The notes under the pieces: generated by a model
Database searches by the model: none
What the model saw: only the letters and a program-made list of their open reading frames with translations
What the model was told of the DNA's origin: nothing
Position numbers and translations under genes: made by a program
Shown: one piece after another, positions 6,566 to 62,252 of the stretch
How positions within the stretch are numbered: the first letter of the stretch is position 1
Layout: the number at the start of each line of letters is the position of its first letter
Source: Mytilus edulis
Lineage: Eukaryota
Direction of reading: 5' to 3'
Assembly: GCF_963676685.1 (NCBI RefSeq)
Contig: NC_092356.1
Coordinates: forward strand, 40,672,001 to 40,736,000
DNA length: 64,000 nucleotides

Positions 6566-6748
6566 ATCATCATTAGTAAATTAAATTTGTGGCCAATAAT
6601 AATTAGTATTGACCCTGAGCATGCCATGACCATTCTGACCTTGACTGCCTGTAATCAAAAACTTGCATAATTCCAAGAACAAAGACCATTGAAATTTTTG
6701 GTTTCTTATCACAACATTGATAAGAAATAAAACTTCAAAAGCCTCATA

Positions 6749-7473
6749 ATGGGAGTTGATAAAAAAGTAAGTGACTTTTCACAGCAACTTCAAAAAGTTG
6801 AACATAATTTAACAGGTATGATCAATGAAGTGAAAACTGACGTGCATGTATTGAAAACAAAATACGATGAATCACAATTAGAAATAACCACTTTAAGACG
6901 AGACTTCACAGAGTTGGAACAGGGTGTTGCAGGTATGGATCTGCAAATACAAGCAATTGATCGTGAAAAATTACAAAAACAAAAATATGAGCTTCAAACC
7001 CAGATGAATGAATTAAAGGATCAGGTAACATTGCTTGAAAAGCATGAAAGAAAATATAATGTTTTGATTTATGGTATTGATGACAGTAAGGCTGACGAGA
7101 ATATCTATTCTGTTACTCGTCAGTTGTTTAGCGAAAATCTAAAAATCGAACAGAGAAAAGCAAATGCCATTCCGATTGCTAACGCTCACCGTGACCAACA
7201 AGGGGTTGTGGACCCAAACCAATTATCGTTCGATTTATCCACTATGGAGATAAACAACTCATTATGTCCAGTGCCCACAATTTGAAAGGTAGTCAAATTC
7301 GTATTTTAGATGATCTACCCATATCCATGAAAGAGGAAAGATTCCTTCTGTCTCACGTAGCCTACAAAATACCGAAAAAAGACAAATTGCAAACACGCAT
7401 TCGAGATGTCGGGGCACATATGACACTTGAAACCCGGAAAAATAGAGGAGAACCATGGAGCGCAAGAGAATGA
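6749..7473 (+). pseudogene. LINE ORF1 remnant (coiled coil followed by an L1-ORF1-like RRM/CTD), frameshifted near 7190
   Basis: ORF 6749-7285 is heptad-rich, then 'ERKYNVLIYGIDD...NAHR'. It continues in another frame as 'PKPIIVRFIHYGDKQLIMSSAHNLKGSQIRILDDLP', typical of L1-type ORF1. Confidence 0.8.
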
Positions 7474-9052
7474 TAAGCAATACATAACAATATACACTTT
7501 GTTATTTTTGTTTACATGTATATATATATATATATACAAAATTGTACTTGTACATCAATAAGCCATGGCCATAGTTATATATATATAGGCTGTTGTGACC
7601 TACATTTTTGTATTTGTGAGAAACTACAGAACTTTATAGGCAGATGTAGATATCTATTTTATTACATATAACTTATAAGATAATTCTTTAATACCAAACT
7701 ATAGACTTACCCTGAGAAAAAAAAATTACAGTAATTTAGCTAAATGAACACTAAACAGAATTGAATCAATTTGCTTTTTCATCTATTGTTTAAATACATG
7801 TATATGTATAACCTTTTTCTTTATCATATTTTCACAGAAACCATTATTAAATTGATACCAAAATGTAAGTATAGAACTGGGAATTTCATATCAGCTTTAT
7901 TATCTATTTATGCAAATATTTTATTTTTGTTTTTTTTGTTTATTTATTTTTTGCTTTTTATTACTTTAGTTTTGCTTGCTCTCTATGCTTTCTTGCCTGA
8001 CTGTCTGCGATATATTGGCAGACACATATAAATGTACATGCTAATTCTGCTTTATATATACTCATTTTCCAACTTGCTGTGTTGAAATTTTTGCCTTTAT
8101 TATTCATTTATATGTTTATTCTCTGCTGCTTATATAGTTATTTATAATTTTGCTCTTGCTAGTTATTTAGTTTTATTTTAAACTGCTATAATGTGCTTAA
8201 TGCTGTGGTTGCTATATGCTTTACTTTATTAAATCAAATACAGACTGACACAAATGAGTTGAAGCTAGAATATGTAAAGTACAGACCACTTTTTAGTTTT
8301 AAAGTGATGTTTATTTCAAATTAAGAATGAGACACTTGTTTAAAATTATCTTTCCTTGTTTGTGTTGATGGTACATGTACATTATAATGAAATGACCGTA
8401 CTGTAGTAAGCTTTGCACAATCTTTGCTGAAACTAACTCATTAATATGATAAGCATACACACACTCAGGATGTGCAGTCTGTGTTCGATTGTTAGATAGT
8501 TTTGTTAGTTTTTAAGATATATTGATCATGCATTACTTTGATTTACACGTGATACAAAAGTATTGCTACATATATATATAGTGATACTGCATTTGAAGTC
8601 AGTCAGAGTTCTTAATTTTTTGAAATCGTCTCTCAAACTACGCACTGTTCTTTTAAACAAGAAATATTAACATTTAGATAAATCTTATATATTTACAGCT
8701 ACATCTCATAAAGAATATTGATCTTTAATTGTACAAATGTATCAGAGATATAATGAGTATAAAACATCTCTGCCTTGTAAATAGACATAGGATCATATAA
8801 ATCTGTATATTTGACATGGGAGTTTTGTTTAATACATAGATACAAAGGACAAACATAGAAACTCCAATATCTACATGTAGTCAATTGAACAACTCTGACA
8901 GTCTTGAAATATTGTACATAATAGGCTTATTTCGATTATATATAGTTCATTTAACTAAAACTGTTTCAAAAAGAATGAACGTGTTAGACAGACAACATCT
9001 TATGATAAAAATATTGACAAATCTGACTGGATCAGACTTGAATAAAAAAATA

Positions 9053-9272
9053 AATAAAGGCAACAGTAGTATACCGCTGTTCAAACTCATTAATCCATGG
9101 ACAAAAAACAAAATCGGGGTAACAAACTAAAACTGACGGAAACGCATAAATATAAGAGGAGAACAACGACACAACACTACAATGTAACTAACACACACAG
9201 AAACGGACCAAGCATCAGACAAAATCCCAAGAAAATAACAAATATAACATCAAAACCAAATACATGAATTTG
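9053..9272 (+). repeat. SINE-like repeat nested in the LINE inter-ORF spacer
   Basis: Same head as the copy at 2983-3155. Confidence 0.7.
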
Positions 9273-9831
9273 AAGGCAGAACAATGGACATTTGTATACT
9301 TGTGCTTCTTTTGTGATCTTTTCTTTTTTGCCATAACCACATATAATGGAAAAGTGTCTTTGTGTGTTGGAAAGAATGACAGTAAGGAAATTAAAAATAA
9401 TATGAAATTATAGGAATGAAATAATCTTTCAAAATATGTACATAACATGAACTATACAGATATTCACTGTTGGGTTTGCTCAAATTAAATTTCCATCTGA
9501 ATCCAATGTATTTAATAAAATTTCTTCTGAGTTATCTCCCTTAGACCATGTAGAGTGAATATCCTATACAACAACAGTGAATGTCTCAGAGTGCAGATTT
9601 AGTAATTGATTTTAATGTTGGACTTTGTCTTGCTATTGTATTTTATGCTTTCATATATATGTATTTATTGTAAATTACAAATATGTCTTAAGGTTTCACA
9701 GATCTGGAAAAACTATACAGTTTTAAAGGAAAAGAATTTTAAAAGTCCCTTGATTTCACAAATTTCATGGTATATTCATGTATACTCACTCATCATTAGA
9801 GTTATAAATATTGATAAAGCTAAATGCATGC

Positions 9832-12800
9832 ATGAAGGGTGATATTCTTAAAATAATTTCTTATAATTGTCAAGGTCTTTATACAAAGGAGAAACGGAGA
9901 GATGTTTTGAACTATTTAAAGTCAAAGAATTTTAATATATACTGTCTTCAGGACACACATTTTACAGAACAAGATGAATTAAACATTAAAAATCAGTGGA
10001 AGGGAGAATGCCTTTTCAATTCATTAACATCCAATCAGAGAGGTGTGGCCATCTTTTTTAATGAAAACTTTGATCTTCAAATTCACAAAGTTAATAAAGA
10101 TGAGGGTGGAAATCTTCTTGGATTGGACATTACAAGAATTACCTTAGTAAATATTTATGGGCCAAATGTAGACACTCCTTGCTTTTATCAAAAGGTGGCA
10201 GACATTATTGAGGAATTTGATAACCTATCTTGTATTCTTTGTGGTGATTTTAACCTCATTCAAAGTTTTAATCTCGACACCCATAATTATGTTAATATCA
10301 ACAACCCAAAGTCTAGAGAAAAAGTATTACAGCTGATGGAAGACTTTAATCTAGTTGATCCATTTCGGGAATTATACCCCGATTTGAAAAGATTTACTTG
10401 CAGGGGAAAAAAAACCTTTAAACAATCTCGTTTAGATTTTTTTCTGATTTCTGATAATATTTTTCACTTTGTTAACGATGTTAAAATTGATAATAGTTAC
10501 AGGTCTGATCATTCACCTGTGGTCTTTTCTTTCAAGATTAATGAATTATAAAAGGCAGAGGCCTTTGGAAGTTTAATAATTCCCTTCTTCATGCTACTGA
10601 CTATGTTAAAGAGATAAAAAACAAAAAAAACTCATAAGTATAGTAAAAGAACAATATGCTGTCAAGATATATAGAGATGAAAATTTACAAAATATTGACA
10701 ACTCTGAAATTGAATTTACTGTTGATGACCAGTTATTTTTCGAAACTTTACTCACAGAAATACGCGGTAAAACTATTTCATATGCCTCTTATAAAAAAAA
10801 AAGCGGGTATAAAAATTGAAAATGAAATTATTTCAAAATTAAAACAATTAGAAGAAAATGCTCTAACTGTAGAAAATCTGGAAGAGATTGATCAGAAAAG
10901 CGAGGATGAAAAGCAGTTATTGGAGGGAAATATTATTTATTTCTGAATTAACTGCAGCATTAAAGAGGATGAAAAATAACAAGAGTCCGGGGTCTGATGG
11001 TTTCACTGCAGAATTTTTCAAATTTATTTGGATTGATGTTGGTAAATTTGTCCTTAAATCTATAAATTTTGGATATGGGAAAGGCCAAATGTCTGTCACC
11101 CAGAGGCAGGGAGTGATTACATGTATTCCAAAAGATGGTAAACCAAAACAATTTCTTAAAAATTGGAGACCTATACTAAATTCTACATATAAATTGGCAT
11201 CAAGCTGTATAGCAGAGAGAATAAAATCTGTTTTGTCAAAATTAATAAGTTCGGATCAAACTGGTTTTGTTCCAGGTAGGTATATAGGCGAAAATTGTCG
11301 TTTATTATATGATATTTTACATTTTACTGAAGAAAATAATATTCCCGGAATTCTCTTGCTGATTGATTTTGAGAAGGCATTTGATTCCATATCGTGGTCA
11401 TTTCTTTATGATACATTAAGATATTTTAATTTTGGTGAATCCGTTATGTCCTGGGTTAAAACCTTCTATAACAATATAACAGCTGCGGTGACACAAAACT
11501 GTTGTCTGTCAGAATTCTTCACTATAGAGAGAGGCTGTAGACAGGGAGATCCTTTATCCCCTTATATTTTCTTGCTATGGGAGAAATATTAGGCATTTTG
11601 GTAAGAAATAGTAGGGAGATAAAGGGTATTACTATAGATGCTACAGAATTTGTACTTTCTCAATATGCGGATAATACATCATTGATATTAGATGGCTCGC
11701 CAGAATCGCTCGATGCATCTCTTCGTGTTCTCCAATTGTATGCTGAAATCTCGGGACTTAAGATTAATATAGAAAAAACAAGTGTTATTTGGATAGGTAG
11801 CAAAAAACATAGCCAGGATCAAATTTGTGTAAAGTGGTGATTGAAATGGGGCTCCAGTACATTTAAGTTGCTTGGAATTACGTTTTCAGTCGACCTAGAT
11901 AGAATGATTAATTTAAATTATAGGCCAGTTTTAGATAATATAGACAACACTTTGAAAAAATGGTCAAAACAGTATCTCACCCCCTTTGGAAAGATTACCA
12001 TTTTAAAAACTTTGGTCATAGCTAAATTAAATCATCTGTTTCTATCTATCCCTAGTCCAGATGAGAATATGTTACGTAATTTAACAAATAAAATGTATGC
12101 TTTTATCTGGGATAATAAACCAGATAAGGTCAAGCGAGATCTTTTATGTCAAGATTATTATAAGGGTGGTTTAAAAATGCTAAATTTAAAAGCATTTATA
12201 CAGGGACTAAAACTTACATGGGTAAGACGTCTGTATAATTCGAACTCAAAGTGGGTGAGATTAGTCTCTATTGTGGAGCAAATAAATTTTATTGAAATAA
12301 GTTATATTGGGCCTATTAAAAGGTCAACAAATAAATTTTGGCAAGAAGTTTTTGATGCTTGGAAAACCCTTAATCAAATTAGAAAACCAAGATGTATTGA
12401 TGAAATTCTATCGTATTCTTTATGGGAGGTAGAAAACTTTAAAATTGGTGGTTCAAGAGTCTACTATAAAAACTGGGCAAATGCGGGAATTTGGACAGTA
12501 CAAGATTTGTTAGATGACCAAGGCAAAGTTATATCATTTCAAAATTTCCAACAATTATATCAATTTAGGCCAAATATTTTACATTATTATGGAATAGCGC
12601 ACTCGCTTAATAAGTGGTTAAACACGATCAATATTGAAGTAAAGGAGAAAAAAATTCATGCAATACTACCTTTTAACATAAGTATCTTTTTTGAATCAAA
12701 AAAAGGTTCAAGGGAAATGTACAAAGTATTGATTGAAAAATATGTTACATTTGCTGCAGTCTTAATATGACTGGTATTAACTGGAAAAAAATAAACACTT

Positions 12801-13336
12801 CGTGTACAAAATATAGTAAAAGCACTAAGCTTTGCTGGTTCCAATATAGAACTATCCATAGAATTTTGGGGACTAATTCACTACTTTACAAGATGAAAAT
12901 AAATAGTAACAACATATGTACATTTTGTAAAGAAGGACCAGAGACCATAGAACATTTATTTTGGAGCTGTCCGATGGTTGCAAGTCTCTGGCATGCACTT
13001 AACATCTGGATTTTTGAAATGACAAATATTGAACTGCCTTTGAATATTATGATTATTTTATTTGGTATCTACGAAAATGTTAAATTGAATTTTGTTAAAA
13101 ATAAGATTATTCTACTTTCAAAATACTACATTTACAGAACAAAACTACAAGAAGTTTTGCCAAATCTAAATGCTTTATTTTTACAGAACAAAACTACAAG
13201 AAGTTTTGCCAAATCTAAATGCTTTAAAAAACTATTTAAAGGAACACTTGAACTTAGAAAAATACATTTCATTTAAAAACCTCTCTGTAGAGGAATATAA
13301 CAAATACTGGAGTCCCTGGGCCCCTATCATAGAATA
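9832..13336 (+). pseudogene. LINE ORF2 remnant: APE endonuclease, reverse transcriptase and C-terminal zinc finger
   Basis: APE motifs SYNCQG, CLQDTH, GDFN, SRLDFFL, SDHSPV. RT motifs KSPGSDG, NWRP, IDFEKAFD, GCRQGDPLSP, QYADN. Zinc finger 'CTFCKEGPETIEHLFWSC'. Broken by frameshifts and stops (10551, ~11580, 11840, ~12770), a shortened EN-RT linker near 10895 and a 49-bp tandem duplication at 13131-13226. Confidence 0.93.
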
Positions 13337-15134: not shown

Positions 15135-16134
15135 CATAAAAGAGGGGCGAAAGATACCAAAGGAACAGTCAAACTCATAAATCTAAAACAAACTGACAAC
15201 GCCATGGCTAAAAATGAAAAAGACAAACAGAAAAACAATAGTACACATGACACAACATAGAAAACTAAAGAATAAACAACACGAACCCCACCAAAAACTA
15301 GGGGTGATCTCAGGTGCTCCGGAAGAGTAAGCAGATCCTGCTCCACATGTGGCACCCGTCGTGTTGCTTATGTGATTACAAATCCGGTAAATAGTCTAAT
15401 TCGGTAGGTCACATTCATGAAAGGGAAGGGGATTGTTGTTACGACGTAAGGAACATATCCGATATCATTTGTGAAACGGTTATTCCATAACGGTCAACCA
15501 ACTCGTGATGGCGTCCGTAAAATTTACGAAGGGATGATTTCAACTTCACCATTTGGAACTCTTGGTTTAATAGCTTCCTTGTGAGCAGTAACTCTCTATC
15601 AAGAAAATCATGATAGGAAATGCAAGCACGGGAATATCGTATCAATTGGGAGATATATACCCCGTATGCAGGTACTGCTGGAATGTTGCTACTTAGAAAT
15701 AGAAAATTCACAATTGGAAAGCTGAAATCATCTCTTTTGTCGTAAAGTTTTGTTTTCAACCGACTCTCATTGTCAATTTCTAGATGTAAGTCAAGATATG
15801 AAGCCCACTTAACTGTATCTGTAGTATCCTTTATCTCCAATTCGATGGGATAGAATCGTTCCACAAAGTCACCAAATTTTGAATTGTTTAGTGAAAGAAC
15901 GTCATCTATATAGCGGAAAGTAGAGTTAAAGGATATTGCTAACTTCTTATCTTTCTTCCTAAGAAGTTCCTGCATGAAGTCAGCCTCATAATAATAAAGA
16001 AACAAGTCGGCAAGTAGAGGGGCACAGTTTGTTCCCATTGGGATGCCGACAGTCTGTTGGAAAACACGTCCTCCGAACGTTACAAATATGTTGTCAATCA
16101 AGAAATCAAGCATCTTGATAATATCATAAGACAC
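15135..16134 (-). mobile_element. 5'-truncated Penelope-like retroelement (RT core and thumb, no C-terminal GIY-YIG) with 3' tail
   Basis: ORF 15439-16134: 'FQQTVGIPMGTNCAPLLADLFLY...FRYIDDVLS...YLDL...KLYDKRDDFSFPIVNF...AYGVYISQLIRYSRAC'. The tail 15135-15438 recurs at 20072-20240 and, degenerate, at ~61670-61950. Confidence 0.9.
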
Positions 16135-16749
16135 GTTTGTGGTAAAAACAGATGCGAGTTTTCATCAATGAGACAGCATCATAGTAACAAAAGATATTAT
16201 GATATTCACTTGACCGATGCTACCATTTGTTGTTTTTCTCAAATTTTTCTAAAACCTGATATCTTTAATTTACACAATGGTTACACAACAACAAAACTGT
16301 ATATAGAACAAAAATTGTAGACAGTAAAGAAAAGTTTCTTTCGTTAGGAAAATTATTGCTTCATTCATAATTACAGATTTTAAACCCCGCACGTGAAAGG
16401 TGCTTTCGACTCCAATTTGTATTGACAAGGATAGCCAATTTTCGTCCCTACGGACGGATAGTTCTCTGTGTACACTGCGGTTTCTTCCACTAATAAAAAC
16501 TAATTGCCATGAAAAAGCCAATAGTGATGAAAGTGGCGTTAAATAGAAAAAAAAACAATCATTGTTTGTTTTAGACGTTTTCTACACAAATGATTGATTG
16601 TTAAATAAGAATCTATCCAAAAAACTTGTATATCACTAAAACAATGTGTCTGCCTCACAAAACAATTTATAAGCATGATATCTGTAATATTTGCCATCGA
16701 ACATGAGGCAGCGTATGATAAAATAATGTTTTTGAATACTTTGAAATTA

Positions 16750-17525: not shown

Positions 17526-19216
17526 ATTTAGAGATACATTTTTACCTAAAGACATTTACGCTGCTAGTAAAAGTTAAAAAAAAATAATGAGAGGTTTAAC
17601 TAGCTATAAAACCAGGCAGTTTGATCCGACATTTGCTTCATAAGAAAATGCATTTACCAAGTCAGGAATATGACAGTTGTTATCCATTTGTTTTATGTGT
17701 TTGAGCGTTTGATTTTTCCATTTGATTAGGGACTTTCCTTAATTTTTAAATTTTCATCGGCGTTTATCCTTTAGTCTATTCGTTCTTTAATCTTCTTTAA
17801 TGCTATAATCGCTTTATCAAGCATGAAATAACACGTTTTCTAATACCTTTTTTAATACATCGTAATATACAATGCTAAAAAAATATCACCTTAAGGTTTT
17901 TAATCAATATTCAAAAGGCTAGGAATCTATAATACCGAATATAGAATATACATAGATACTTGTTTGTACCAAACTGACCAGTACGTATGATGTTGGTGTC
18001 ATATTATGAACGAGCGTAAATGTAATGTTGGTACTTACACTGATGTTTAAATTACACGTTTCAGTTTTATAGAAGTTAATGTACACATATTCTGAGAGTC
18101 TTTGTTATACATGCACATGTCAATGTTTACATTTTCAAATATTGATTCTTATAATCTGTTAAATAAATGGTTGAATGTGTACTTTGAAAAAATGTGATTT
18201 TGCTGTAATTTACCAAAGGTAGGCTAGACTTAACAAATGATTAAACTGCTTTGAAATGTTTATTAAAGATACCTTCTGTTTGTATTTATTCTTACTTGAA
18301 GATCAAATGCGATACAATTCAGTACACTTTGAAGACACTTATGGTTATCATAAGTATAAAATCTTCTACATAAAATGAAAATTAAAACCACATAAACGAA
18401 GATGTATTATGTAAAAAGTAAAATCACAAAAATACTGAACTCAGAGGAAAATCAATTTGAAAAGTCCATAATCACATGGCAAAATCAAAAAACAAAACGC
18501 ATCAAAAACGAATGGACAAGAACTGTCATATTCCTGACTTGGTACAGGCATTTTCAAATGTAGAAAATGGTGGATTAAACCTGGTTCTATAGCGCTAACC
18601 CTCTCACTTTAATAACAGTCTCATCAAATTCCGCTACATTTACATGATGCGTTAAATAAATAGTCACAATTAATAAAATAGTCAAAATATGGGTACATCA
18701 GTCATCATCGTATAACAACTTAACAGGACACAAAAACATCTACTATCTACGAACACATGGATTGATTTGAGTGTCTGACGTCAGAAAAATTATATACGTC
18801 ACATAAATTTGTCGTTCAATGTGCATACAAACAATTTTAAAATCTATATAGACAATGTACGTATACAGGGTAAGATTAATTGTTTTTCTATTCAATCTGA
18901 AGGTTGACATTCTAAAAAAACATAAGGGCACATATATAATTATGGCATCCACTCCATTTGAGTTAGGGTGTTTGACATGTACAGTCATTGTTGTCCTTGC
19001 TTTTTTGTTTGGTTTACTTATACCGCTCAAAAGTATTCTTGATAATGATACTATTTCTATTGCATATCAATGCGAATTGAAGAATGCATTTGCAGTTGAG
19101 AAGCAAGATAAAAAGTATGACACTTCGTGAGCAGTATGTATAAACTCTGAAATATAATATTTCTACTTTTTATTGCGTATCAGATTTATCTAAAAGCAGC
19201 GTAAAATGCTGTATAA

Positions 19217-20071
19217 TTATACAGAAAAAATAGAGTCACAATACTCAAGTGCATTCAAAATTGATTGATCCATATTAAAATATTTATAACTGGCTAGTCG
19301 TCCAACAAAATGTATATTTCTCTCCTTCTCTGCTAAAGCTTTATATTGTTCATACAGTTCCATATTTCTTTTGTTTGGAACAGGATAGTAGGGATCACCA
19401 TCGCTACATGTTGTCTCCGAGATAATCGTGGTGTGTGGCGAATCTTGATTGAGGAGATGTTTGTATTCTATTATCCTGGTAAATGGAGTTTCGGGACCTA
19501 GATGATTAACGTGAGCACATGGCTGGAAGAATTTAGTATTCTTCAAGCGTTGAATTTCAAAGTTTACGGATCTATACTCTAATTTAGGGTAGCAAACATT
19601 TGTGAAGAAATCATCAATATGTCCAGAATATATAATGGTACAGTTGGAGATAGTAGAAGAATCAATGCCAAAATAGTCACATGACAGGCGTACTGTTATA
19701 TTTTCACGGTCAAGGATGTTTTCGAGAATTTTTGTATAACCATCAGTAGGAAGTGCTTGATATTTGTCACTGAAGTAACGGTCATCGAAATAATTTCTTA
19801 CTGGTACATGTATTATAGCTAACACTGATGCATCCAATTCCTCTGGGTACCTCTTCCATTGTTTAAATGTATAATGCTTAAATATTTTTTCATACAAGGT
19901 TTCATCTACCCTTGGCGTGGCCATTTGATATCCATTATCAATATGTTCATGCTTCAATTGGTTTCAGGACAACCAGTCATCTGCTTCTTGTTGATTTGTT
20001 AAATGCTGTCCACATAACATATTAATAGTTGTTATGTTTGGTGGCAATGGTATGTATTGTCCATCAATTAC
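19217..20071 (-). pseudogene. glf: Bacterial-type UDP-galactopyranose mutase, intronless, 5'-truncated, with one in-frame stop
   Basis: ORF 19217-19957 has Glf motifs 'YEKIFKHYTFKQW', 'PVRNYFDDRYFSDKYQALPTDGYTKI', 'LEYRSVNF', 'FTRIIEYKH', 'PYYPV', 'FVGRLASYKYFNMDQ'. The frame extends upstream as 'VIDGQYIPLPPNITTINMLCG...DDWLS*NQ' with TGA at 19964-19966. The N-terminal FAD-binding GxGxxG is missing. Confidence 0.92.
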
Positions 20072-20240
20072 TAAGCAACACAAACCCCATCAAAAACTGG
20101 GGAGGGGGGTGATGTCAGGTGCTTCGGAAGGGTAAGCAGATCCTGGTACACATGTGGCACCCGTCGTGTTGCTTTTTATTAAAAATCCGGTATATAGTCT
20201 AATTCAGTGAGTAACATTCGTGAAAAGGGAAGTGTATTGT
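20072..20240 (-). repeat. Penelope-like 3' tail fragment abutting the truncated glf
   Basis: Matches 15275-15440 ('acgacgggtgccacatgtg...gcttacccttccgaagcacctga'). Confidence 0.8.
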
Positions 20241-20314
20241 AAGGAAGGTGAAAAAGACAATATGCAATAACATTATAGTTAACAGTATACATGTGATCTT
20301 GTACAAGTGTTTTG

Positions 20315-20485
20315 TGAGTTTATTTACAACCACTGGGTCGATGCCACTGCTGGTGGAATATGACCAAATATTTATTCCCTGAGGGTATCACTAGCCCCAG
20401 TAGTCATCACTTCTATGTTGTCATGAATTATCATTGCGTTTTGAAATACTAAGGGTTTTCTACCTCAGGAATAGATAACATTAGA
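20315..20485 (+). repeat. Partial retrozyme family A unit (structured domain, no hammerhead), inverted relative to the 25-kb array
   Basis: 'accactgggtcgatgccactgctggtgg...gagggtatcactagccccagtagtca' is the reverse complement of the array domain. Confidence 0.8.
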
Positions 20486-27510: not shown

Positions 27511-27970
27511 ATGGGGACGAAGTCTGTATGATTTATTTTTTTGTAACTTAAGTATTTGTTAAAAAAAAAAGAAACGGAAATACCGTAACGTTTCCGATTT
27601 TGGTTCTGTTGTTAGGGATTTTAGTTGTGACGTTATTTAAATTATGACGTCATATGCAATGTAAACAAAGAAACGCTATCATCAGGTAACGTTTTTTCAT
27701 ATCAAGGAATTATTAAAAATGAAATTGGTATTGCGCGTTCCTTCCTATTTTATACTAGACTGATAAATATATATTTTACTCAAAGTTTCATACAAACGAG
27801 TCCGGAAAAAGGAAGTTCATTGTACATTTCTGCGCCGGTCCGGGATTTCAAAACACGACAAAAAAAATTTGAACGATTTTGAGTTCATTAGTACAATGAA
27901 AAATTCGGGAAATTTTCCCGAATTTTTTTTTTATTGAATTTTCTACTGTTATTGGGGACTTCGTCCCCAT
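27511..27970. mobile_element. MITE-like element with 14-bp TIRs
   Basis: atggggacgaagtc ... gacttcgtccccat. Confidence 0.6.
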
Positions 27971-28099
27971 ATAATTATCAAAAGAAGCTTACATCCTTTT
28001 CTCCGAAATCAGTTCAATCAACTTAAAATTGTTCTACCTTGTAGACCACCATTCTCCGTGAAATTGTATAAAAGAGAAAATTCACAATTCTTTTCATAT

Positions 28100-30200
28100 G
28101 AAAATCTTAGAATACGCTATAAATTTACAATACGGCATATTTTGTCAAAATTGTACAAAAAGGTAAAACATATTTGTTTAATTGGAGGTAATCCTTTTAA
28201 ACGAATTGTCGGCATTCCTATGGAACTGAACTTTTACTTATGTTCACATGAATCGGAGTTCCATCAGACACTTGTAAGAAAAACATCAAAGAAGCCAGAC
28301 CATCGAATTTTGCATTCAGATATATCGATGATTTTCTTTCCCTTGGCCATTAGCCATTGCGTTCCATTAATTAAACTTATCATATATACCCGGATTAAAA
28401 TTTATATTTACGCCGGACGCTCGTTTCGTCTACAAAAGATTCATCAGTGACGCTCGAATCAAAAAATGTTAAAAGGCCTAAGTACAAAAATTCCCAAACG
28501 TTTTTCCAAAAACAGCTAACTAAGGTAATATATTCCTGAGGAAGAAAAGCCTTAGTACTTCAAAAATTCAAAATTTTGTTAACAGTTAATTTATGATTAT
28601 GAACATATCAATGAAAACTCAAGTCAACACAGAAGTGCTGACTACTGGGCTGGTGAACAGCATTGAGGGCCAACAATTATTAAACGGTTTTTTTCAAATA
28701 CAGCTACGGTAATCTATTCCTGAAGAAGTATATCCTCAATACTAGAAATTTAAAGACACGGCGTTATCTACCTTAGTTTTAGAGTGACACATCATATATG
28801 ACATGCGCAATCATCTTAGTACATAAATCAATGACAATCAGGTTGTTTTTCATTTTGAAATTATCAATATTCCCCGCCTTTGTAGCAAAATAACAACTTC
28901 ACCTCCATACGGGATATACATTTTGAATCCCAATTTCTATTCAAGAGCTTGCAGCTGCCGCTCAGACTTGTAAAGCGTCACCAGTGTCTGAGCAGAAATT
29001 TGATGAACCAGGGTTATGTCACGAACGTCTCGCGCTTTTTATAAAAAAAAACAAAGTTCATCGTGAGATATAAAAAAAAGAAGGTGTGTTATGATTAAAT
29101 GTACCAATGAGACAACTGTCCATAAGAGACCAAAATGATAAAGAAATTATCAAAGTATAGGTCACTGTACGGCCTTCAACAATGATCAAAGCCGATACCG
29201 AAAATACCCATATAAAAAAGGAGATATGGTATGATTGACAATGAGACAACTCTCCACAAGAGACCAAAATGACACAGAAATTAACAACTATAGCTATAGG
29301 TCACCGTACGGCCTTCAACAATAAGCTAAGCCCATACCGTATAGTCAGCCTTGAAAGGCCCTTAAATGACAATGTAAAACAATTCAAACGAGAACGGCTT
29401 TATTTTTAAGTACAAAAAATGAACGAAAAACAAATATGTAATACATAAACAAACTACATCCACAGAATTACAGGCTCCTGACTTGGTACAGGCACATACA
29501 TACATAATGTGGCGGGGTAAAACATGTTAGCGGGATCCCAACCCTCCCCCTAACTTGAGACAGAAGTATAACAGTAACATGAGAAACTTTTCAACTTTAA
29601 CCCTGTATACCACCATACCTTGTTGTTAATTATTTGATGTAATACACGAGGGTCTTGAAGTATAGATTCTAGGTACTGATGTTGTTTATCATCTTCAAAA
29701 CATGTTATAATGTTCCTTCGTTTGTCTTTGTAAATTATAACAACAACTGTCTATTTGGGTAATAAACGTTTGACACGGCTCGGTATTTATACATCCCGTC
29801 ATTTTGGTATTCTTGTTTTTCGATTTTGCTCATGTGATGTGCTTCGTCTTAATGCTTTTTTCTACATATTTTTTAAAAGTGATTAAGATTTAAACACAAT
29901 GTTGAAAACTATACCCCTATGTTTGCCATTTTTACCATTTTATATCTCTTTGTTGTGTTCACACATTGTTGCCAATATTATGGAATTTCATGTAACTGTC
30001 ATCCAAGTGAGATATTTTCAATAGCTATAAAAACAAGTTTTATTCAACATTTTCTACATAAGAGCATGCCTGTTCAAATTGAAGGATATGACAGTTGCTA
30101 TCCTTTCGCTTGATGTGTTTGAGCTTCTGATTTTTCCATTTGATTAGAAACTTTCTATTTTGAGTTTTCCCTGGGTTCGGTATTCGTGTTATTTTGCTTT
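28100..30200 (+). mobile_element. Highly decayed Penelope-like element interrupted by a retrozyme monomer and SINE-like repeats (29075-29580)
   Basis: 'GGNPFKRIVGIPM' (~28183-28220), 'ttcagatatatcgatgat' (FRYIDD, ~28315), thumb region 'FEIINIP...TSPPYGIYI...SRACS' (28853-28957), then the tail family at 29600-30200. Confidence 0.7.
28390..28740 (-). mobile_element. Diverged retrozyme family A monomer with hammerhead at 28411-28452
   Basis: Minus strand: cguca CUGAUGA auc uuuugua gac GAAA cgagcg UC cggcg. Stem II and the stem III palindrome each carry a mismatch. Confidence 0.8.
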
Positions 30201-57447: not shown

Positions 57448-58900
57448 CCTAATACATAAATAACAACAGACTACTAGCAGTTAACTAATATGCCAGCTCC
57501 AGACCTCAATTAAACTGATTGAAAGATTATGTCTTCATCATATGAATATCAGGCAAAATCCCTCCCGTTAGGGGTTTAGTAACATACTATCATAAAATAT
57601 ACGAGAAGAACATATCTCGTGTCATGCCAACAACTGTTTTTTAAATAAATGTGTTTAGTTCCAATGCAAAGACCCTATAAGTGAATCAATATTTAAGCCA
57701 AAATATGCAATCTTTAATGACATGACAACAGTATCGTAACTATATCCCTTCTTAATAAGTCTGTTTAAAGGTTTTGTAAGTTTTTCAGGTCAATACTGAC
57801 ATTTTTGTGCTTTGTAAAGAATATTACCATAAAAGATTGGATGTGAAATACCTGAACGTATAAGATGACTGCATGTTGAGTTATATTTACGAATTATTTC
57901 CTTATACCGAGGATAAAATTTAGTAAATGTTTTGACTAGTTTGTGATATCGAAAACCCTGGTGTAATAATTTTTCAGTAATACATAACTTTTTCTCGCTA
58001 AAATCTAATACGTTGTTACATACACGAGCGAATCGTACAAGTTAAGATATATAAACACCATAAAATAGTGACAAGGGAACGTCACCATCTCAAAATGGAT
58101 AATTAACGATAGGAAATGAAAAATTATCTCTTTTATCATACATTTTTGTATTAAGCTACCCGTTAATGATAAATATATCAAAATCTAGGAAAGGGCAGTG
58201 GTCATTGTTAGTATAAGCTTTATTTAAATAAGTTCAACGGGATAAATTTCTTCAGTATACATACTGAAGTCGTCATTATTGAGAGCCAATATATCATCCA
58301 GAGATCTAAAAGTATTGTTAAATGTTTGTATCAAATGTAGTTTCGATGGGTCTTTGCTAATTTTAGTCATAAATTGTAACCCATAACAATACAAAAACAG
58401 GTCCGCAATAAGTGGTGCACAGTTAGTCCCCATTAGAATTCCAATAACTTGACGATATACGGAATCTCCAAATCGAACAAAGATGTTATCAAGTAAAAAT
58501 TCAAGCGCATAAACATTATCAAAGCATGTCCAATTGACATAGTTCTCCTGTTTATTGCTTCTAAAAAAATGACCTGAAAGAGTGAAAATATGTACTCGCA
58601 TTCTTACTTTTTAAATGCCTAGTTAATTAGGGATGTGAAGTTTTTCTTAATAAGAATATGAGGCAAAGTGGTATATAGGGTAGAAAAATTCAAAATCACC
58701 AATATATGCATGTAATTTATCAAGTATTTCCAACGAGTTTTTGACACTCCAAAAATAATTAATTCCACTATTTTCAAAGGCCTTATTTGAACAATTTATC
58801 ATCAGGTTTTTTATTGTACCAAGTGTACTAGTAAGTAGAATAGACAATTTAGTAGTGGAACAATGGCTTGAAAATGAAATAAATCTATATTTGTAATTCA
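57448..58900 (-). mobile_element. Decayed Penelope-like element (RT plus 3' tail)
   Basis: 'YRFISFSSHCSTTKLS...NYFWSVKNS' (ORF 58647-58997) and 'FLLDNIFVRFGDSVYRQVIGILMGTNCAPLIADLFLY...FRSLDDILALNN' (ORF 58224-58601). Confidence 0.88.
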
Positions 58901-60871: not shown

Positions 60872-62252
60872 TTATGAACGAGTTCTAAATACTAAAATGT
60901 AATAGTCATTCATTTTGAAATAGAAATAATACAGATCGTTATAGCTTACATAGTAACCATATGATTTACCAACAACACATTGAAAATATTTCCCAAAAAA
61001 TATTTCTGATCTCTGTTTAATGTATTTTGCAACCGCCGATTGTTCACTATGTTGTTGAAAAGCCTCTCTTGCAAAACTCAATATCATGTGTTGTGTATTA
61101 TATCTCATATCAACTGCTAATATATCATATGAAACGGATCTTTTATGTTTTTCCTGTGGAAGTAGTCCTAAAATAGTTTTAAAAATAAAGGCCATAAGTC
61201 GTTGTGCTTGTTCATAATAATAATTATTTACTATAACTCTTTAAAAAAAAACCCGTCAAATTTCAATTAGCATTTACAACGATTTTGGAGATATAATAAG
61301 TCTATCACGTAAATATAAGTGTATAACGAGGCCATATGCAAATTAAATGCATGTAATTTTTTGTGTTGTTTAATAAATCATGGCTTCAAAGCATTAGTTA
61401 AAATTTACAATAAAATAAAAACAAAAAGAATAAGGTCATTAATGCCTGAAAACAAACCAAGAAGTTAGTTAAAGGAACATGTTGGATTAATTTTTACACA
61501 ATTAATATACGGTTTTGGTACTTAACCTGCAACCAAGAGTTCCAAGTGGTTAAGTTATTATCTCTTTAAAAATTTTACAGCCATCTTCACGAGTTGGTAA
61601 TAATTAAAAATATTTATTTCAAAGACGACGACGGATATTCACATTAATCGTTACATGTACCACAAACTAGTGTCCTTTCCTTGAATGTGATATATCGAGT
61701 AAGACTTATTTGGGTTGTACTTACATGTGCATCATGATGGATGCCTCATTTGGAAAAGCATCTGATTTACCTTCTGGACCGCATGAGATCCCCCCAGTGT
61801 TTGTTGGGGTAAGTGTTAGTCAGTCTTTTGTTGTCTTTGCTGATTTTTAAACTGTTATTTGTCTTAGATCGTTTTTCCTTTTTGCCAGTGCATTGTAATT
61901 GTTTTCAACTGATGAGTTTGAATATCCGTTTGATGTATATTTCGTCCATCTCATGTTGAATTACCTGCTAAATAAATCGTGTGTCTCAATTTTATGTTCA
62001 GTTCTTTTTTTTAATATAAGTTGTCGAATCATATAATTGACACTATATTTCTATGAAACTCGTTGAAGTTTGTTGACTTTTCCGTTCTATCTAAATTGTA
62101 TTTACCTTGAAGATATGCATGATATGTTCCTGTGATATTTAAAAAAGAAATCATACTTACTATTTCTATGGTGTGATTGGTTTGTAAAATTCCTTCTCAA
62201 AATCATTGATGTGTCGCCGATTTCATTTTTCAACGAATAAACGTAGAACATG
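60872..62252 (-). CDS. Divergent dynein light chain type 1 (LC8-like) protein; probable exons 62252-62161 and 61167-60872 (alternatively the single ORF 61195-60872)
   Basis: 'ILAVDM...AVAKYIKQRSEIFFGKYFQCVVGKSYGYYVSY...YFYFKMNDYYILVFRT' fits the LC8 pattern ([30 protein letters not shown]...FIYF...AILLFK). Acceptor ttttag at 61168 and donor gtaagt at 62160 are phase-compatible. Confidence 0.75.

Follow-up and report, generated by a model that had tools for sequence, protein, structure and literature searches.

A dead copy of a bacterial-type UDP-galactopyranose mutase gene and its intact paralogues in a tandem array of Mytilus edulis

Main finding

The window analysed, a stretch of 64,000 nt of the Mytilus edulis genome (G000:C13:40672001-40736000; contig NC_092356.1 of GCF_963676685.1), contains a dead copy, c3, of the gene glf, encoding UDP-galactopyranose mutase (UGM). 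Copy c3 belongs to a tandem array of nine copies. The probable reading of the data is that the intact members of the array are cytosolic FAD-dependent UGMs, that they stem from the marine giant-virus/protist pool by horizontal transfer, and that they would supply UDP-galactofuranose (UDP-Galf) for the glycans of the mussel.

Structure of the window copy

The coding remnant of c3 is represented by 285 codons without an intron, which match the family PF03275 GLF in Pfam (E 8.9e-69), in agreement with a preliminary description of about 285 intronless codons with Glf homology. Over residues 88-369 it is 92% identical to an intact paralogue, the identity of DNA being 93%. Codons 1-87 are absent from c3, and with them the motifs GCGLSG, HIGGN and KYGxHLFHTN of the FAD-binding start, so the prokaryotic Glf motif set, considered complete at first, is incomplete in this copy. 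The missing codons hold 21 of the 92 columns conserved in at least 90% of the rows of a 601-row alignment. The internal TGA, described before as the single stop, is indeed the only one, but it is accompanied by a 6-nt insertion and by the substitutions G143D, R173I, P236H and P276L, all at columns with at least 90% conservation in the same alignment. Arg173 aligns with Arg198 of the Deinococcus radiodurans UGM, which we take to be an active-site residue. The view of c3 as a near-intact gene with one stop is therefore abandoned: the start, the upstream exon and Arg173 are all lacking.

Table 1. Features of copy c3 and its surroundings (positions in the window)
Feature	Position	Strand	Remark
c3, glf/UGM array copy 3; 5'-truncated pseudogene, codons 88-369 and terminal TAA	19217..20071	-	G000:C13:40691217-40692071
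Internal stop TGA at codon 123; CGA in intact copies	19964..19966	-	
Arg173>Ile and 6-nt in-frame insertion right behind the Arg173 site (insertion 19804-19809)	19804..19816	-	
3' UTR-like stretch common to intact copies	19063..19216	-	
Host high-copy repeat adjoining the 5' break of c3	20070..20484	.	contig depth
Host high-copy repeat on the 3' side of c3	18335..18835	.	contig depth

No detached N-terminal piece of c3 was found in the window or in the rest of G000, where all 8 matches belong to other copies, and the window likewise contains no counterpart of the exon that lies upstream in these copies. The score of c3 against TIGR00031, 208 bits, is below the cut-off of 303.75. Having lost the FAD-binding N-terminus, the open frame and the mobile-loop arginine, c3 fails as a working enzyme and, judged from its sequence, cannot encode one.

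The high-copy repeats on both flanks (called from contig depth, which was never used as copy number) and the LINE relics found farther out by Pfam bear out the earlier description of host repeats around the gene. The repeat at the 5' break is 80-84% like a repeat located, in the same orientation, within the 5'UTR intron of copies 1, 5 and 7; the break is either a deletion or a fresh repeat insertion. TTAG at the break raised the question whether an intron starting at 20071 separates off an N-terminal exon; this was rejected: the intact copies are continuous at this point, and no N-terminal piece is present. On the 3' side, a contig of run X15, which is perhaps not independent of the assembly, crosses the 3' UTR-like stretch and the flank (18842-19173) with 0 differences; no contig bridging the 5' break was found among the matches listed. 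The GC content of c3 is 0.349 vs 0.315 for the window, with GC3 of 0.30-0.33. This low GC is uninformative on origin, since the median GC3 is 0.23 in viral and 0.38 in bacterial relatives.

Elsewhere in the window, positions 6731-13276 (+) contain a fragmented LINE with coiled-coil ORF1, endonuclease, reverse transcriptase (RT) and zf-RVT, and further RT relics are present at 15439-16161, 27938-28450 and 58224-58610. At 60872-61240 (-), an intronless frame of dynein light chain type 1 was found (PF01221, E 2e-18, GC3 0.21), possibly a retrocopy.

Nine-copy array and selection

All nine glf copies, c1 to c9, are located on the minus strand of C13 between 40.579 and 40.827 Mb, in tandem over about 250 kb. 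Whole frames of 369 codons are present in four of them, c1, c4, c5 and c7, the last at G000:C13:40799768-40800877, so the search for intact paralogues proposed in the preliminary description gave a positive result. Active-site residues are kept in three, c1, c5 and c7, with departures at 2, 1 and 1 of the 92 conserved columns, respectively. Copy c4 carries R173K and Y328H, and its splice donor is deleted. The remaining five copies of the nine are broken in G000: in addition to c3, c2 is frameshifted and already stopped at codon 2, and c6, c8 and c9 have frameshifts in one A-run at nt 442. Intact, selected and transcribed paralogues are situated 70-135 kb from c3, which upholds the earlier supposition of a recently functional parent.

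A gap of 100 N parts c1 and c2 from the other copies, and the likeness between c5 and c7 is 97% along 5 kb; accordingly, the count of copies may include assembly duplication. Protein P0001 of M. galloprovincialis has a whole frame and the distinctive residues of c6, so some of the breaks in the array may be polymorphic.

Purifying selection acts on the whole copies. The dN/dS ratio (Nei-Gojobori) is 0.14-0.36 for the six pairs of whole copies and 0.14-0.20 among c1, c5 and c7. For c3 and its nearest copy, c4, the ratio is 0.92 (7 synonymous and 26 non-synonymous differences). Comparison of the frameshifted copies c6, c8 and c9 with one another gives 4-7 non-synonymous against 0-2 synonymous changes. 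The array is characterized by birth-and-death of copies around three good ones, c1, c5 and c7.

Orthologues are named in M. edulis, M. galloprovincialis, M. coruscus and M. trossulus, in several assemblies, on contigs of 0.16-75 Mb; those of M. galloprovincialis and M. coruscus are whole and come from other assemblies. The presence of orthologues in four species excludes contamination, and, together with the X15 contig, it led to the rejection of a contaminant or chimera, in line with the chromosomal location assumed at the outset. An endogenous giant-virus element was also rejected, as no further viral gene was seen around the array: the ORFs of at least 150 aa over 334 kb look by eye like glf, transposons and simple repeats (Pfam was run on 22 frames of the window, and the rest of the ORFs were judged by eye).

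Two further observations concern the surroundings of the array and a second location. Near copy 1, long, almost whole retroelement frames were found at G000:C13:40563339-40569863 (-) and 40586054-40590393 (+), by eye Pao/BEL-like and DIRS-like. A decayed glf fragment of 260 nt with stops, 71% identical in DNA to c7, is located at G000:C11:62404740-62405003 (L014/L015).

Transcription and leader intron

Transcription is represented by contigs of run X1, which consists of assembled contigs presumed to be RNA. One of them, of 476 nt, is composed of two pieces, L286:4749-4661 and 1734-1401, contiguous in the contig and with 0 differences; its first 53 nt are unplaced. The contig skips 2,926 nt, which start with GTAAGT and end with TTTTACAG, that is, a GT-AG intron in the 5'UTR. 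The acceptor, tctaaatttgtttt(a/g)cag, is present about 55-57 nt upstream of ATG in all 8 copies with a 5' end. Three X1 contigs, namely, the spliced one and two over the coding region, are identical to c7 and have 7 differences to c5 in 428 nt.

In three raw RNA runs, of which 6%, 6% and 18% were read, the depth over the coding region was 0-0.4, which points to low or tissue-restricted expression; the transcript is present in one of the four mapped runs. The proposed check of transcriptomes thus yielded a spliced c7 transcript in X1 and next to nothing in the raw runs. Runs X2-X14, with small word shares, were left out as evidence; in run X2, no coverage of the gene was found at 97% likeness.

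The upstream exon, L286:4661-4749 (G000:C13:40803861-40803949, minus strand), starts with ATG and opens an upstream frame. In copies with a 55-nt leader this frame is in frame with the mutase and is closed by two conserved TGA just before ATG. Its end is basic, then hydrophobic, and it may be a uORF or the relic of an anchor.

Enzyme type, fold and active site

Copies c1, c4, c5 and c7 pass TIGR00031 with 351-364 bits (362-364 for c1, c5 and c7, 351 for c4), and c1, c5 and c7 hold the N-terminal FAD-binding motifs GxGxxG, HxGGN and GxHxFHT. All 13 sequence matches in the PDB are prokaryotic UGMs, with none of the eukaryotic type. The AlphaFold model of c1 (pLDDT 78, alignment of 16 rows) has the three-domain UGM fold according to Foldseek, and with D. 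radiodurans UGM 3hdq it gives TM 0.88-0.90 at 42% identity.

The active site of the D. radiodurans enzyme presumably comprises H88, H109, F176, T180, W184, R198, Y209, F210, N296, R305, E325, Y335, R364, Y370 and N372. Their counterparts in c1, hand-counted in the alignment with 3hdq, are H62, H83, F151, T155, W159, R173, Y184, F185, N274, R284, E304, Y314, R343, Y349 and N351. Thus, c1 is identical at 15 of the 16 residues that we take to form the substrate site, including both arginines, R173 and R284, the exception being F175, replaced by I150. In c5 and c7, active-site residues were checked via motifs and conserved columns. By the modelled fold and active-site residues, the intact copies are bacterial-type UGMs.

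Eukaryotic-type UGMs, such as A. fumigatus GlfA and T. cruzi UGM, share the reaction and the overall fold with the mussel type, but their chain is longer, with an additional sheet and helices and about 470-510 residues, and the c1 model compared with them gives 13-18% identity and TMq 0.71-0.76 (Foldseek). With 369 aa, this low identity and no representative among the 13 PDB matches, assignment to the fungal, trypanosomatid and nematode type was rejected, as the preliminary description had expected. GLF-1 of C. elegans, the textbook animal UGM, is of the eukaryotic type. The mussel enzyme is similar to prokaryotic UGM/Glf (TIGR00031, PF03275; 3hdq, E. coli 1i8t, K. pneumoniae 2bi7) in length, fold (TM 0.84-0.90), FAD motifs and active site, and differs from it in having neither an operon nor an adjoining glycosyltransferase, in its eukaryotic exon-intron leader, and in its position in the trees apart from the main bacterial clade.

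No signal peptide or membrane anchor was found in the intact copies, which have 2 residues ahead of the Rossmann strand, and the mussel UGM is accordingly predicted to be cytosolic. The available part of one source gives the reaction as UDP-Galp <-> UDP-Galf, with an equilibrium of 11:1 towards UDP-Galp, and describes an NADPH site in eukaryotic UGMs and not in bacterial-type ones (PMC7662398). Since bacterial-type UGMs are described there as having no such site (PMC7662398), keeping the flavin reduced is a point against the preferred reading.

Phylogeny and origin

Among the matches listed, the closest proteins outside Mytilus are the P0002 cluster (75%, 28 members), P0004 (70%) and P0183 (67%); the contigs of P0002/P0136 are as long as 751 kb. 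In the same matches, chlorarachniophytes rank next with 61-63%, the viral loci, among which giant-virus MAGs are numerous, reach 60%, and the bacterial ones 58%. Scans with P0136 and the clade alignment revealed no relatives above 62% identity in metagenome or viral contigs among the matches listed. Proteins of venerids, Ciona and Amphiura were not found among them, nor was any oyster, scallop or other animal named in the matches listed (120+120), save Mytilus and Gigantopelta.

The tree (IQ-TREE, LG+C20) was built from 62 rows hand-chosen from 601, a sampling that favours near matches and is without Ciona and venerid proteins. Mytilus and P0002, P0004 and P0183 form a clade of 7 rows with support of 100/99 (0.997-1.0 in FastTree). 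It is located inside a clade of 36 rows (97/88), which includes 11 giant-virus MAG loci, chlorarachniophytes, 4 bacterial loci and other rows; the node of 26 rows uniting Mytilus, viruses and chlorarachniophytes has support of 88/90. Giant-virus (GVMAG/IMG-VR) and chlorarachniophyte Glf, which fall in the same clade as the mussel protein, are the nearest named relatives among the matches listed, at 58-63% identity. Outside the 36-row clade are 73 of the 77 best bacterial loci. In AU tests, for which the groups were named after the trees were seen, the grouping of the mussel with the main bacterial clade was rejected (p=0.0008), as was that with the Gigantopelta-type fusions (p=0.005), and the grouping with the three Bacteroidota of the 36-row clade was not (p=0.205).

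A chromosomal place, host flanks and orthologues in related species, as for a domesticated horizontally transferred gene, were found, and the mussel gene was likely gained horizontally from outside animals. Horizontal acquisition, proposed in the preliminary description with a bacterial, protist or viral route, is retained as likely, with the main bacterial clade rejected as donor. The trees are best read as a gain from the virus/protist pool, though this is not proven, and the donor probably lay in the giant-virus/protist clade.

Direct transfer of the same enzyme, for the same use, from a bacterium of the Bacteroidota, as proposed for Ciona, is unlikely. The coding block is intronless, the bacterial equivalog TIGR00031 is passed, and the grouping with the three Bacteroidota loci, one of which is in a GT2 operon, is compatible with the AU test; however, the main bacterial clade is rejected, nearly all of the best bacterial loci are outside the 36-row clade, and the best bacterial identity among the matches listed is below those of protists and viruses.

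According to the available part of the paper on Ciona, this tunicate has two horizontally acquired UGMs, KY21.Chr5.483 and KY21.Chr14.742 (PMC13390645, 2026). Similar to the mussel genes, they are of the bacterial type, located in the chromosomes of a marine filter feeder, intronless in the coding region and expressed, and horizontal transfer was proposed for them; in contrast to the nine-copy tandem array of Mytilus with birth-and-death and a spliced 5'UTR intron, they are two dispersed single-exon genes with a proposed bacterial donor (PMC13390645). As no named Ciona protein is present in the best 120 matches listed, separate acquisition by Ciona and Mytilus is suggested.

Vertical descent of an old eukaryotic or early bivalve gene, lost in most animals and with no recent transfer, is of equally low probability. 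Homologues are given for Mercenaria, Ruditapes, Amphiura, Ciona, diatoms, haptophytes and a red alga in Fig. S4 of the available material, the leaves of which include 11 Mytilus, 11 venerid and one Amphiura protein, and venerid leaves adjoin those of Mytilus there in file order, not in a drawn tree (PMC13390645). Membrane-anchored UGM fusions are also present in Gigantopelta aegis and the choanoflagellate Hartaetosiga balthica, and the relatives P0002, P0004 and P0183, at 67-75%, may be other animals. Against this, the AU test rejects a single clade of the mussel and Gigantopelta types, the architectures of which differ, the coding region has no intron, and Mytilus and Gigantopelta are the only animals named among the matches listed. 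An old transfer into the ancestor of bivalves suits the venerid neighbours equally well. The distribution in animals is in any case wider than assumed in the preliminary description, with homologues in venerid clams, a brittle star and Ciona (according to the available part of PMC13390645) and in a gastropod.

The gastropod protein, Gigantopelta aegis UGM-like XP_041356356 (P0400), has a bacterial-type domain with 53% identity to the mussel protein and is likewise encoded on a mollusc chromosome, but it differs in its N-terminal hydrophobic anchor and C-terminal DUF3431-like domain, and common origin with the mussel gene is rejected. With its relatives P0403, P0201, P0432, P0194, P0241, P0301 and P0326, as well as P0216 of Hartaetosiga balthica, it represents a second kind of UGM, in which a hydrophobic anchor and the UGM are followed by a C-terminal domain matching the DUF3431 region of viral-type fusions (E 1e-10 to 1e-14; Pfam gave no DUF3431 call at 1e-6). 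Several members are located on contigs of 0.1-0.7 Mb. This second kind resembles a mutase and a transferase of Golgi type on one chain, and it may identify DUF3431 as the domain that transfers Galf. FastTree joins the choanoflagellate protein to the Gigantopelta clade (0.94), and the 62-row IQ-TREE does not. Another group, P0015, P0033, P0105 and P0210, forms a clade (100/98) of UGMs of about 395 aa with a short N-terminal extension; one is on a 1.2-Mb contig and one has an intron-like start, and the clade may be of venerid type or belong to another eukaryote.

Proposed function

In the proposed mechanism, an intronless coding block would have come to lie downstream of a host promoter and a non-coding exon. 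Tandem duplication would since have amplified it, some copies dying as others arose. In the cytosol, N5 of reduced FAD would attack C1 of UDP-Galp, and the ring would close as a furanose, according to the known mechanism of UGM; the intact copies very probably run this reaction with UDP-Gal. Cytosolic UDP-Galf would be taken up by a putative host nucleotide-sugar transporter, and a putative co-opted host glycosyltransferase would place Galf on surface or mucus glycans. That these two putative partners act in this way has, in our estimate, an even chance.

Glycan building is suggested by the relatives, in which the mutase is fused to or adjoins glycosyltransferase-like domains of GT90, DUF3431, GT61, GT1 and GT2. 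In giant-virus and chlorarachniophyte Glf, fusion to or proximity of GT90, DUF3431, GT61, GT1 and epimerase domains is frequent, whereas the mussel protein stands alone. Beside the viral glf of one giant-virus MAG locus (L111:5953-7092), an ORF with cementoin-like repeats and a gene for UDP-glucose dehydrogenase were observed. In G000, no partner was found with DUF3431, DUF4422, Glft2_N, the Gigantopelta C-terminal domain and a viral DUF3431 protein as queries; these are weak negatives, split genes being matched exon by exon and the positive control working for one of the five queries. Fungal Galf transferases belong to GT31, and animals have GT31.

That the intact copies are mutases for another sugar nucleotide (UDP-Arap, UDP-GalNAc or a deoxy sugar), or serve a non-glycan use, is improbable. 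The five queries that revealed no Galf transferase in G000, the same fold in C. jejuni UDP-GalNAc mutase 4mo2, and the fact that no report of Galf in bivalve glycans was found in the literature searched agree with such a use. The residues of the substrate site argue otherwise: those which we take to contact galactose in D. radiodurans UGM are kept, and His62 of c1 aligns with E. coli His59, where UDP-GalNAc mutases of the C. jejuni type presumably have Arg, so this type was rejected for the mussel protein. A digestive role needs no nucleotide-sugar mutase, since free Galf mutarotates by itself.

A decaying insertion or assembly contaminant with no present function, to which the five broken copies, the decaying c4 and near-zero reads in three of the four mapped runs could be ascribed, is highly improbable and largely refuted by the low dN/dS among c1, c5 and c7, the spliced transcript with conserved splice sites, and the whole orthologues from other assemblies.

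Relation to published data and significance

Galactofuranose is best known from microbial cell walls and is regarded as a sugar of microbes, fungi, protists and nematodes. In the available part of one review, Galf comes up only in connection with fungi or in an analytical remark (PMC6994554), and UGM is presented in that of another source as a drug target 'absent in higher organisms' (PMC7662398). The presence of UGM in Mytilus is already known from RefSeq/GenBank names and from the paper on Ciona, the available part of which states the UGM domain in three Mytilus species and an ostracod (PMC13390645); the surprise is reduced accordingly. No analysis of the mussel locus was found in that part of the paper (PMC13390645). 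No published account was found of the anatomy of the array, its intron, the selection on it or its virus/protist affinity, and the search, which reached few subscription journals, revealed neither a study of a mussel UGM array nor a report of Galf in bivalve glycans.

With a multi-copy UGM that is spliced and under selection in an edible bivalve, the question whether Galf glycans are made by molluscs becomes open to a direct test. The finding also concerns the distinction of self from non-self glycans in bivalve immunity, as well as the role of giant viruses and algae in donating genes to filter feeders. A broader and rather doubtful proposal is that mussels decorate their own glycans with Galf by means of a mutase from a giant virus or its protist host, and that marine invertebrates gained microbial-type UGMs repeatedly. 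If this is true, the repeated gains would comprise the mytilid array, the membrane-anchored UGM-glycosyltransferase fusion of gastropods, and the genes of Ciona, venerid clams and a brittle star, and Galf, instead of being an exception confined to nematodes, would be a recurrent though hidden component of the animal glycome.
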